Shown here one piece after another: positions 30,629 through 61,507 of a DNA stretch of 64,000 nucleotides. The notes below the pieces were generated by a model. The model had not been told where the DNA came from, did no database searches, and worked only from the letters and a program-made list of their open reading frames with translations. Position 1 is the first letter of the stretch. Every line of letters begins with the position of its first letter. Source of the stretch: Bdellovibrionales bacterium (lineage in GTDB: Bacteria > Bdellovibrionota > Bdellovibrionia > Bdellovibrionales > UBA1609); contig CBDATD010000001.1 in assembly GCA_965199935.1 (NCBI GenBank), forward strand, positions 491,097-555,096. The letters are read 5' to 3'. Both the position numbers and the translations under genes were made by a program.

Positions 30629-31009
30629 ATGTTTACTCTTGCTTTTCAAAAAACCGGTAGTATGCTTTTTAAGCGGGGGATGCGTATGAGCTGTGCCAGA
30701 TGTGTTTTTATTTTATTAATTTTCAGCTTTTCACCGGCAAATGCAGAAGTTTGTGAATCTGCCTTCCATCCCCTTGAAAGAGTCCATAAAGCGGAAGAGC
30801 TTTTAAATAAGCAGTTAAGCCCCAAACAAAAATCAGCTCTTGAACAAGCTTATCTTGCCGGTGCAGGAAAGCTGGACAAAGACGGAAAAACTCCTGCTGA
30901 TCCAAACAGTTACACCCCTGCACAATTAAAAAAGAAAACAAGAATTTTAAAATGGGTTGGTTTCTCACTTGAAGAAATTCAACTGCTCATGCAAAAAAAC
31001 ATCATCTAA
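30629..31009 (+). CDS. Hypothetical small secreted protein
   Basis: The likely start is the ATG at 30686, which has a GGGGGA SD and gives the signal peptide MSCARCVFILLIFSFSPANA. Confidence 0.45.
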   Translation: MFTLAFQKTGSMLFKRGMRMSCARCVFILLIFSFSPANAEVCESAFHPLERVHKAEELLNKQLSPKQKSALEQAYLAGAGKLDKDGKTPADPNSYTPAQLKKKTRILKWVGFSLEEIQLLMQKNII

Positions 31010-31083: not shown

Positions 31084-31566
31084 CTAACATCCGTCTGGAT
31101 AAGCCAACCGCTCGTATTTTTTCACTAATTTTTCATTTCTATCAAGATACTTCCTCCCCAAATCCAAGTACCTCTTGTCTTTCTTATGTTTTCCAAATTT
31201 TCCTTCTTTTATTAGAGTCTGTAAAAGCTCCACGTTTTCTTTGGCTAAATCCTCCCATTCGTGAAAAGGGATGCATTTGTTTCCAAAATAAGCCACCTCA
31301 TACATATACTCTTGAAAGTGCCTGTAAATAGGCAACATATTATCAAAATATTTTATCCCATCAGTTTGCACCATCAGTTCTGCGGAAATCACTCCGGCTA
31401 GGCGAAATAACATGATATTTTTTTTTTCGTTCCATTTTAGATCCAATAAAGCCTCTAACAGTTTTGGACTTTGAAAAATATCCTTTCCGTTTTCCCTATA
31501 GTAATCTCTAGATTCTTCATAATTTCTCCTTGAGTAAAGAATATCTATAAATTTTTGTAACTTCAT
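31084..31566 (-). CDS. Hypothetical helical protein coupled to the RES-like ORF (candidate antitoxin or immunity protein)
   Basis: ATGA start/stop overlap with the upstream ORF. An AAGGAG SD sits inside the upstream gene. I recognise no HTH and no known family. Confidence 0.6.
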   Translation of the reverse strand: MKLQKFIDILYSRRNYEESRDYYRENGKDIFQSPKLLEALLDLKWNEKKNIMLFRLAGVISAELMVQTDGIKYFDNMLPIYRHFQEYMYEVAYFGNKCIPFHEWEDLAKENVELLQTLIKEGKFGKHKKDKRYLDLGRKYLDRNEKLVKKYERLAYPDGC

Positions 31567-31940
31567 GGAAACTCCTTAAAACTAATAAAATTGATTCCTT
31601 TGTTAGCTCTATCTGGAGCTGAAAGGACGATAATTCCTTTAAAGCCCTTCTTTTTAGCGATATGACCAATCACTTGAGTTATATCATAAGCATTTGTATC
31701 ATCCACAATTAACTTAGCAATATCATCTTTGTTTACATCAAGTTGTTTTAAAATTTTAGGATTTGTTAAATCCAGCACCTTGCCTGTTTCAGCAGGGTCA
31801 ATCAGCTTATAAAAAGTCTTATTTCCGGGTAGATCATTTTTCCCAAAACGGACTAAAAACTCTGCTCTAGAAGTTCCTTTTGTTAAAGAAGTATAAAGAG
31901 CATGATCCCCAACAGAGTATCTTCCTATATGTGACTTCAT
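31563..31940 (-). CDS. RES-domain-like protein (candidate NAD-targeting toxin)
   Basis: The Arg-Glu-Ser pattern has the expected spacing: GRYSVGDHALYTS, SRAEF, and YDITQVIGHIAKKKGFKGIIVLSAPDRANKGINFISF. At 125 aa it is short for the family. Confidence 0.6.
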   Translation of the reverse strand: MKSHIGRYSVGDHALYTSLTKGTSRAEFLVRFGKNDLPGNKTFYKLIDPAETGKVLDLTNPKILKQLDVNKDDIAKLIVDDTNAYDITQVIGHIAKKKGFKGIIVLSAPDRANKGINFISFKEFP

Positions 31941-32173
31941 TCCTTTATGAAATAAAAAGGCAGTCTTTCACCCATCTTATTCTCAGGAAATACTTTTTTT
32001 AGCTGTATATGTCAATAAAGATTTTAAAAATTTAGCTGTGTAACAGTTTCATATTTTATGTGAATTTTACACACGCTTAAGGAAGAAAAATATCTTAATT
32101 TGCTCCACCAACAAAAGCAAAATTAAAGAGGGCAATTCTTCGTACAAACAGTGTACAACAGCATCTATACGGA

Positions 32174-33457
32174 TTATTGCTGTTCAAAGAATTTGCGGCC
32201 GTAAACACGCGGAAAAGGAATGGCTTCACGAACATGATCTACTCCACAAAGCCAGCAAATCAACCGCTCCACACCTAAACCGAAGCCAGAATGATCGAAA
32301 GAACCGCAGCTTCTCAGATCTAAATACCATTTGAAATCTTTTTGGTCCAACTGATGGTGTTTCAGCGCTTTTATTAAAATATCTCTATTAGTTTCTCTCT
32401 GCCCTCCTCCCACAAGCTCTCCATACCCTTCCGGCGCAAGTAAATCACAACTCAAAGAAGAACCTTCCTTTTCATCTTGTTTCATATAAAAAGCTTTAAT
32501 TGGAGCAGGATAGTGATGAACAAAAACAGGTTGTTCATACAAGGAGCTGATGAAAGTTTCATCAGCTCCTCCAAAATCAGAGCCTTTCTTAAATTGAGGG
32601 TTTTTCTGTATTAAACGCTCGCAGGCTGTTTCATAATGAAGTTTTGGAAAAGGAGTTTTAATTCTTTCCAAACAGCTCAAATCCCTTCCTAAAAATTTTA
32701 ACTCTGCTCTGGCGTTTTTTAAAACGTACTCGATAATAAAGACAATAAACTCTTCAATTAAGTCCATATTTTTACTAAGATCACAGAAAGCCATTTCAGC
32801 TTCACACATCCAAAACTCCATTAAATGTCTTCTGGTGCTGGATTTTTCCGCCCGAAAAACAGGGCTGAGACAATACACCTGGTTAAAGCCGGCGCTGGCC
32901 GCCTCCAAATACATTTGTCCGCTTTGGCTTAAATAGAGGGAATCCATAAAGTCCGTCTGAACCTTAAATAAAGTGGAGGTTCCTTCACAAGCAGAAGGGG
33001 TAAAGATAGGAGGATCTATCTGTGTAAAATTTTTAGAATTAAAAAATTGATGAATAGCATGAATAACATGGTGGCGGACTCGAAGAACGGCATGAGGTTT
33101 TTTGGAGCGAATCCACAAATGCCTGAGGCTCATCAAAAAATCCACCCCGTGTTCTTTTTTAGAAAGAGGGTAAGCCTCAGCCTTGGAAATTAAATGAATA
33201 TTTGAAATGTGTACTTCAAAATTATTTTTCCACTCTTTAACAACACCCTGCACTTGAAGAACACTTTCCTGGGTTAGTTTTTCATAAAGCTCAAAAGCAT
33301 TTTTTGTTTCTTTGTTATATTCCAAAACGCACTGAACAATCCCTGTCCCGTCCCTTAGCAAGATAAACCGAATCTTGCCGCTGGAACGCAGGTTATAAAC
33401 CCATCCATTTAGTTGAACCTTCTGATTGACAAACGAACCTAAATCTGAAATAAACAT
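32174..33457 (-). CDS. asnS: Asparaginyl-tRNA synthetase
   Basis: Class IIb aminoacyl-tRNA synthetase with motif 2 FRAEKSSTRRHLMEFWMCEAEMAF and motif 3 GFGLGVERL. Confidence 0.9.
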   Translation of the reverse strand: MFISDLGSFVNQKVQLNGWVYNLRSSGKIRFILLRDGTGIVQCVLEYNKETKNAFELYEKLTQESVLQVQGVVKEWKNNFEVHISNIHLISKAEAYPLSKKEHGVDFLMSLRHLWIRSKKPHAVLRVRHHVIHAIHQFFNSKNFTQIDPPIFTPSACEGTSTLFKVQTDFMDSLYLSQSGQMYLEAASAGFNQVYCLSPVFRAEKSSTRRHLMEFWMCEAEMAFCDLSKNMDLIEEFIVFIIEYVLKNARAELKFLGRDLSCLERIKTPFPKLHYETACERLIQKNPQFKKGSDFGGADETFISSLYEQPVFVHHYPAPIKAFYMKQDEKEGSSLSCDLLAPEGYGELVGGGQRETNRDILIKALKHHQLDQKDFKWYLDLRSCGSFDHSGFGLGVERLICWLCGVDHVREAIPFPRVYGRKFFEQQ

Positions 33458-40003: not shown

Positions 40004-40020
40004 GATTATTTTCTGAGAGG

Positions 40021-40034
40021 GTGTAAAATTTACA
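40021..40034 (+). promoter_or_regulatory. Fourth, imperfect copy of the palindrome (GTGTAAA-A-TTTACA)
   Basis: It lies in the same position relative to the XRE 3' fragment as the palindrome at 38344 does relative to the XRE gene. Confidence 0.5.
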
Positions 40035-61145: not shown

Positions 61146-61507
61146 GTACTTTCTCCACACAAAGTATAAGTCACAGAGTGATAGCAAAGATCAAATTTCC
61201 TTTCAAGATATACTTTTAGACAGACTTCTTTCTCACGAGTGTTCACAAAAACATTATGTGATTTCAAATGATATTCCAGCATAAAAAATAAATAGTGAAA
61301 ATTTTACACACTCTAACCTTGAACTATTTAAGATTTCTACAGATTTATCAAAAGCTTTCAAAGTGTGGAGGAAGGGGATTCACCCACATCCCGTTCGCTC
61401 CAGTGCAGGCTCACTTCAAGCTCTAAGAAAAACATCCCCTTGCTTCTCTGTGAAACCTGCTTTCACAGATTACATGGATACATCCTTCATTTCGAACCCA
61501 CCATGAT

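Follow-up and report, generated by a model that had tools for sequence, protein, structure and literature searches.

The locus described here is probably an orphan toxin-tip/immunity cassette, the working part of which is the immunity gene. It lies in a window (the whole stretch of DNA analysed, 64,000 nucleotides in length) from a Bdellovibrionales bacterium and consists of a 125-aa ORF derived from the RES-domain tip of a polymorphic toxin, followed directly by the gene of a 160-aa protein. The domain identities, the truncation of the toxin part, the gene order, the recurrent architecture and the boundaries of the cassette are direct observations. NAD+ as the target of the RES tip is suggested by its relationship to MbcT and further RES toxins, and protection by the immunity gene against this toxin type by analogy with orphan cdiI genes and orphan immunity genes of gut Bacteroidales. 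The coordinates are collected in Table 1.

Table 1. Features of the cassette and its upstream neighbor, in positions of the window.
Feature	Position	Strand	Basis or remark
Orphan RES toxin-tip fragment, 125-aa ORF	31563..31940	-	ORF table, sequence
Putative immunity gene, 160 aa, predicted all-alpha	31084..31566	-	Homologues directly 3' of PT-TG/RES toxins; AF2 model
5' boundary of the cassette	31941..31970	-	Nine in-frame codons KTAFLFHKG, preceded by TGA at 31968-31970
Shine-Dalgarno (SD) sequence AAGGAG of the immunity gene	31572..31577	-	Read from the sequence
Clustered-substitution patch, 5' block of the cassette	31796..31935	-	Alignment to a near-identical strain (L007)
A10 homopolymer within the immunity ORF	31418..31427	-	Sequence; A9 in the related contig L007
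asnS, next gene upstream of the 125-aa ORF	32174..33457		233 nt away

By profile comparison the 125-aa ORF is RES-domain sequence, with a resemblance beyond chance. It matches Pfam RES (PF08808) with 27.6 bits at a gathering score of 23.2 (E = 3.5e-6), and the Arg, Glu and Ser hallmarks named in the original prediction are found in place, namely R7 in G6-R7-Y8-S9 (GRYS), E27 in A26-E27-F28 (AEF) and S107 in L106-S107-A108-P109 (LSAP). NCBIfam and PADLOC scans of the 125-aa and 160-aa proteins returned only noise. The closest database relative is P0003, a protein of 177 aa, which is 57% identical and carries 48 additional N-terminal residues. When a profile was made from this clade, it retrieved ordinary RES proteins of ~170 aa annotated as RES family NAD+ phosphorylase. 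Furthermore, a family profile (A4) that includes the 125-aa ORF and to which ordinary RES proteins were added finds MbcT at E = 3.2e-14; a narrower profile of close toxin tips alone (A3) gave no match in the PDB, so that the broader one was required. In the A4 alignment, R7, Y16 and E27 correspond to R47, Y58 and E69 of MbcT, S107 is the Ser of the PSA motif, and all four residues align with invariant RES columns.

On the structural side, P0003, the complete homologue, was modelled with AF2 (pLDDT 86.7), and all PDB matches of this model are RES toxins, with MbcT at the top (6fkg, E = 1.7e-6, TM 0.66), followed by VPA0770, NatT, Res of P. putida and ParT. A RES/ART-like fold is supported in this way for the complete homologue. 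No contigs were on record for the exact sequences of P0003, P0004, P0007 and the window immunity protein, and the clusters of P0003 and P0015 yielded neither names nor accessions.

The RES domain of the window is not complete. Residues 7-110 of the ORF cover positions 26-126 of the 157 positions of PF08808, and positions 1-25 are missing. The conserved RES set comprises two arginines, one Glu and one Ser (Zhang et al., PMC3482391). The first of these arginines, R27 of MbcT, is the Arg of the VWRG/vYRv motif in complete relatives and has no equivalent in the window. In P0003 it corresponds to R29, on the long strand formed by residues 21-28 of the model; the part lacking in the window comprises the strands 21-28 and 30-32 plus R29. 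For MbcT, the variants R27A and R27E were reported to be non-toxic and without NAD+ turnover, none being detectable in R27E (PMC6436930). Judged by the presence of beta-1 and of the first conserved Arg, the window ORF therefore falls short of a complete RES domain, and the VWRG strand is not encoded in any frame upstream of it. Two further changes are visible in the alignment: the near-invariant Pro of the PSA motif is replaced by Leu, and 2-3 residues are deleted ahead of the VLDLT strand. The "minimal RES-like toxin" of the original prediction turns out to be a truncated fragment.

The origin of the fragment became apparent from its relatives, which were found by tracing homologues of the 160-aa protein to their contigs. 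All seven full loci (L001-L006 and L009) encode a protein of about 770-905 aa with the pre-toxin domain PT-TG (PF14449) and, at its C-terminus, the homologous RES domain; a homologue of the 160-aa protein follows directly downstream, either overlapping by 4 nt or separated by 13 nt. L001 and L002 encode a PT-TG/RES toxin of 772 and 813 aa, respectively, followed by the immunity homologue with a 4-nt overlap, and the same layout with toxins of 855-905 aa is present in L003-L006, from three Bdellovibrionales MAGs. The full-length toxins have signal-peptide-like N-terminal sequences. This neighborhood survey bears out the gene order of polymorphic-toxin/immunity pairs that had been proposed, and homologues of the 160-aa protein do co-occur with genes ending in a RES domain.

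Most instructive is L009. Here, an 838-aa PT-TG/RES toxin and its immunity gene are followed by a 127-aa orphan RES ORF, a second immunity gene, a 129-aa orphan RES ORF and a third immunity gene. The orphans lack the trafficking region, and their 5' part is a homology block that also occurs in the full gene. On the DNA level this homology starts abruptly at TTTCATAAGAATATG (FHKNM); from this boundary the three copies are 99-100% identical over ~100 nt and are variable beyond. The window fragment starts at the equivalent position, with the start Met conserved (FHKNM-GLRDQRF in the L009 orphans, FHKGM-KSHIGRY in the window). The alignments place the boundary of the cassette behind beta-1 and hence within the catalytic domain of RES, not upstream of it.

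Besides these arrays, other remnants and fusions were noted. In L005 (8633-9685, OZ220490.1), two RES tail fragments of ~42 and 71 aa are located after the full pair, accompanied by partial or frameshifted immunity copies, which shows, as far as the sequences can tell, that orphan cassettes decay to different lengths. In P0015, a protein of 192 aa, an unrelated N-terminus with a lipoprotein-like signal sequence precedes the RES tip, the two meeting at the same junction (DLFRFRP...); the same breakpoint has apparently been reused in a different fusion. Upstream of the toxins, ORFs homologous to the central part of the toxin preceding PT-TG are found (L002 3-332, L003 2702-3280, L006 2411-3013), as well as conserved ORFs of ~370 and ~320 aa (L003 3349-5440, L006 3078-5179). 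Conserved genes preceding the full-length toxins were scanned with Pfam for delivery machinery, without any match; these ORFs may be accessory or delivery genes.

When the 64-kb window was searched by tblastn with three full-length toxins, the match was limited to 31967..31569. This corresponds to the 125-aa ORF plus the nine in-frame codons KTAFLFHKG and ends at the TGA codon; neither a toxin body nor a full-length PT-TG toxin was found in the window. The ATG of the ORF directly abuts AAAGGA (spacing 0), the only purine-rich stretch there, which represents Lys-Gly codons of the ancestral gene. Because homology runs past the ATG up to a stop codon and AAAGGA is explained by ancestral codons, the 125-aa ORF is, judging by these comparisons, the 3' fragment of a polymorphic-toxin gene and matches the C-terminal ~125 residues of PT-TG/RES toxins. 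This is the second of the two alternatives offered originally, an orphaned C-terminal toxin module, which is what the full toxins and the L009 array show. Since the fragment has neither beta-1 nor an equivalent of MbcT R27 nor an SD at a suitable distance, most likely it is either not translated or has no catalytic activity. Against the view of a dead fragment counts that its frame is open and that R, Y, E and S have been kept.

The same open frame, with a Pfam score above threshold, the conserved R7, E27 and S107 and an overlap that would allow coupled translation, could also be taken for a self-contained toxin-antitoxin (TA) module in reverse order, in which a minimal 125-aa RES toxin is paired with a new antitoxin downstream. 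This is very improbable: what is missing with RES positions 1-25 is a core beta-strand and an Arg that is essential for activity in MbcT, the ATG lacks SD spacing, and the homology upstream of it is that of a gene fragment. Furthermore, every complete relative forms the end of a large secreted protein. When JGI metagenomes were scanned with the RES profile, the matches were canonical Xre-RES genes, all of them distant, and a single RES toxin of the RHS type; upstream of the nearest stand-alone RES genes a canonical HTH partner is encoded, and no member of the 160-aa family lies beside the JGI RES genes. The RHS-type toxin (L015 430-4059, JGI Ga0100392_1026270) is a 1064-aa YD/RHS-repeat protein with a C-terminal RES domain, after which an unrelated Cys-rich ORF of 144 aa is located, a candidate for a different immunity protein.

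The second component of the cassette is the 160-aa protein. Its AF2 model displays an all-helical bundle of eight helices (pLDDT 85.5, pTM 0.82), as had been predicted from the sequence, and a Foldseek search of this model against the PDB gave no match with an E below 1. No Pfam, NCBIfam or PADLOC family matches the protein. Across 39 diverse family members, Pfam revealed no Imm51, DUF2384, HTH or other Imm domain and no consistent family (0/39), which agrees with the earlier view that the partner is no antitoxin of the Xre/DUF2384 type. The family is small, with 60 clusters reaching an E of at most 1e-3 out of 1.84 billion representatives; a scan of JGI metagenomes with the immunity alignment found nothing, the alignment (A5) being too divergent as a seed. 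Taken together, the 160-aa protein is a probable member of an unrecognized and so far undescribed immunity family, the first of the two alternatives raised at the outset.

The window gene itself is full length and retains every residue that is invariant among nine relatives. It overlaps the 125-aa ORF by 4 nt (ATGA at 31563-31566), and its AAGGAG is positioned 5 nt ahead of the ATG, within the last codons of the toxin fragment; overlap and internal SD had both been recognized correctly. The immunity gene is therefore intact and has its own well-placed SD. The conserved adjacency, together with the co-variation of the two genes, suggests that the 160-aa protein neutralizes the RES tip. Over 10 cassettes, the identities of tip and immunity protein correlate (Spearman 0.71, Pearson 0.92), a value confounded by the shared ancestry of linked genes. 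Such a pattern would be expected of cognate pairs, to which linkage and shared descent also contribute.

Other members of the family are proteins of 430-680 aa that contain two to four tandem copies of the immunity domain (P0047, P0048, P0049, P0051-P0053, P0055 and P0061). In L001 (5854-7902), tandem immunity domains are fused to Sel1 repeats just downstream of the toxin/immunity pair. From their domain layout, the tandem proteins look like fused poly-immunity proteins.

Since the 160-aa protein has no structural relative in the PDB, its way of neutralization may differ from the C-terminal plug of the Xre-type antitoxin MbcA. It is tentatively proposed, with a confidence just short of even, that the family represents a RES immunity unlike this plug and, at the same time, travels in an exchange cassette that starts within the catalytic domain. 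On the same footing, these toxins would diversify by swapping two-thirds of the enzyme together with the immunity gene and not by swapping the whole domain.

The cassette is located between asnS and the tat genes and is solitary among housekeeping genes (asnS, RNase E/G family, tatA/C, grpE/dnaJ and lon). As stated in the original prediction, nothing HTH-like is encoded upstream; asnS is the next gene, and the 233-nt spacer contains stops in all three frames. A frameshifted N-terminus in another upstream frame was considered and rejected by three-frame translation of this spacer. A scan for promoters and terminators revealed nothing convincing in the minus-strand sequence ahead of the cassette; a perfect TTGACA lies ~70 nt upstream of the 125-aa ATG but is combined with a poor -10 region. 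Since the scan found no consensus promoter or terminator around the cassette, expression of the immunity gene is presumed; the gene may also be transcribed by read-through from asnS.

In the spacer, the GTGAATTTTACACAC motif noted earlier is indeed present at 32060-32074. Its suggested role as a palindrome half-site did not hold up, since the window contains 6 matches with up to 3 mismatches where 2.5 are expected, and 7 of 100 shuffles reach the same number. Copies with two mismatches occur in two other intergenic regions, at 40019-40033 (-) and 61297-61311 (+). Convergent to the cassette, a 126-aa ORF (30629-31009, +) has a signal-peptide-like N-terminus and is called as a gene in L007 as well; Pfam gives no match for it.

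A view of the recent history of the cassette is provided by L007, a contig from another sample, which has the same asnS-cassette-tat synteny; over 16.3 kb it shows 40 mismatches to the window (99.7% identity). Thirteen of them fall within 31796-31935, about the first 140-145 nt of the RES fragment, where the background rate would give ~0.3 per 140 nt. Eight of these 13 changes are synonymous and five non-synonymous. Outside this patch the cassette is essentially identical, with a single substitution in the 483 nt of the immunity gene. The patch looks like a gene-conversion tract or like reads from a paralogue, and in either case a second, ~90% identical copy of the 5' block would be present somewhere in the population. 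Hypermutation of the DGR type was rejected as its cause, as the changes are not adenine-specific. A further difference is the A10 tract of the window, which is A9 in L007, so that the frame is shifted and the immunity gene split. The L007 assembly has only 3.7x coverage and its tatC is split too, and the A9 is probably a sequencing error; the tract could be a slippage-prone on/off site or, alternatively, reflect such a low-coverage error.

These observations bear on two further explanations. According to the first, a toxin locus was lost and the entire cassette is a decaying remnant of it, without present function and too recent to have vanished. A relic would fit the lack of a full-length toxin within 64 kb and of a consensus promoter, the Leu and the deletion in the fragment and the frameshift of the A10 tract in L007, of which the last loses weight if the A9 is a sequencing error. 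Nevertheless, it is an unlikely explanation for a cassette whose immunity ORF is full length, with all family-invariant residues and a well-placed AAGGAG, and which outside one patch of the toxin fragment is essentially identical in a second sample. Moreover, orphan immunity genes elsewhere are expressed and protective (PMC3150448; bioRxiv 10.1101/471110).

According to the second, the cassette is mainly a silent spare part, which by recombination of its 5' block with a full PT-TG/RES gene located elsewhere in the genome or the population would switch tip and immunity at once. This explanation is compatible with the immunity role, to which it may add, and is possible, though on balance doubtful. 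It draws on the near-identical 5' block of ~100 nt that the L009 cassettes share with their full gene before they become variable, on the equivalent start of the window cassette and on the 13 differences at the 5' end of the fragment, the eight synonymous changes of which suggest conversion from a diverged functional copy. However, neither a donor nor a recipient full-length gene is seen for the window genome in the 64 kb covered, the patch could stem from mis-assembled paralogue reads in the low-coverage L007, and lone cassettes distant from a toxin gene recombine rarely.

The preferred reading, an orphan cassette kept for its immunity gene, would operate as follows. In the complete systems, the PT-TG/RES protein would be exported via Sec, and its C-terminal RES domain would enter a neighboring cell, where it may destroy NAD+ or ADP-ribosylate a target. 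The producer would be shielded by the 160-aa helical protein, whose translation starts from an SD of its own in the final codons of the toxin gene. In the window, only a promoter-less and N-terminally truncated 3' end of the toxin gene remains together with the cognate immunity gene, which would protect the cell from RES toxins of this type delivered by relatives. In a secondary role, the cassette may serve as a recombination substrate via the 5' block homologous to full toxin genes, and such recombination would permit swapping of the tip plus its immunity gene. This role as a recombination reservoir is plausible but tentative for the window cassette, no full-length PT-TG toxin being present in the 64-kb window.

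The kind of locus is already established, RES polymorphic-toxin tips since 2012 and orphan tip/immunity modules since 2011. New, to a modest extent, are the undescribed immunity family, the carrier architecture and host lineage for RES tips and the intra-domain boundary. A gene caller or Pfam alone would name the headless 125-aa ORF a "RES family NAD+ phosphorylase", a mis-annotation that is corrected here, and a rare unannotated protein family receives a probable function in RES-toxin immunity. Furthermore, PT-TG/RES polymorphic toxins with orphan arrays are documented in small-genome bacteria of the Bdellovibrionales type. If confirmed, the 160-aa family would provide a third, structurally unrelated route of RES neutralization after the Xre/DUF2384 antitoxins and Imm51, and the intra-domain boundary would be an unusual case of polymorphic-toxin recombination.

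Among the closest known systems is Tox-RES, which was listed among polymorphic toxin domains with Imm51 as its immunity protein (Zhang, Aravind et al. 2012, PMC3482391). Since RES as the tip of a polymorphic toxin was described there, the new TA architecture suggested originally does not stand. Both systems share a RES domain at the C-terminus of large secreted toxins, an immunity gene directly downstream and stand-alone tip cassettes. Imm51, however, was described as an alpha+beta protein with a W and a Dx[DE] motif (PMC3482391), whereas the partner found here is predicted to be all-alpha and gave no Imm51 match among the 39 members. The carriers differ as well, being RHS/FilH proteins in the 2012 survey and a signal-peptide/PT-TG protein in MAGs of the Bdellovibrionales type here.

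In CDI and Rhs systems, the junction (VENN or PxxxxDPxGL) lies upstream of the entire toxin domain. Here, in contrast, the junction is located inside the RES domain after beta-1, ~two-thirds of the enzyme are encoded by the cassette, and the window cassette is solitary. What the two have in common are arrays after the full gene with a common homology block, as known for orphan cdiA-CT/cdiI and rhs-CT/rhsI modules (PMC3150448). In these, promoter-less 3' toxin fragments almost always precede the cognate immunity gene, and orphan cdiI genes are expressed (Poole et al. 2011, PMC3150448).

With the RES-Xre type II TA systems (MbcT-MbcA, ParT-ParS, Res-Xre of P. putida and NatT-NatR), the catalytic fold and the residues R, Y, E and S are shared, and by this analogy the chemistry on NAD+ is probably common to the RES-Xre toxins and the PT-TG/RES tips. 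The RES-Xre toxins are complete cytoplasmic proteins of 150-190 aa with an Xre/DUF2384 antitoxin encoded upstream, whereas the window ORF is truncated, without upstream partner and derived from an exported toxin.

Finally, an immunity gene without its toxin is the hallmark of orphan immunity and acquired interbacterial defense clusters (bioRxiv 10.1101/471110; PMC12247911), and by analogy such a gene is presumably kept to resist the attack of neighbors. The clusters of gut Bacteroidales are T6SS-related arrays (10.1101/471110; PMC12247911), whereas the gene described here is a single one, attached to a toxin remnant.
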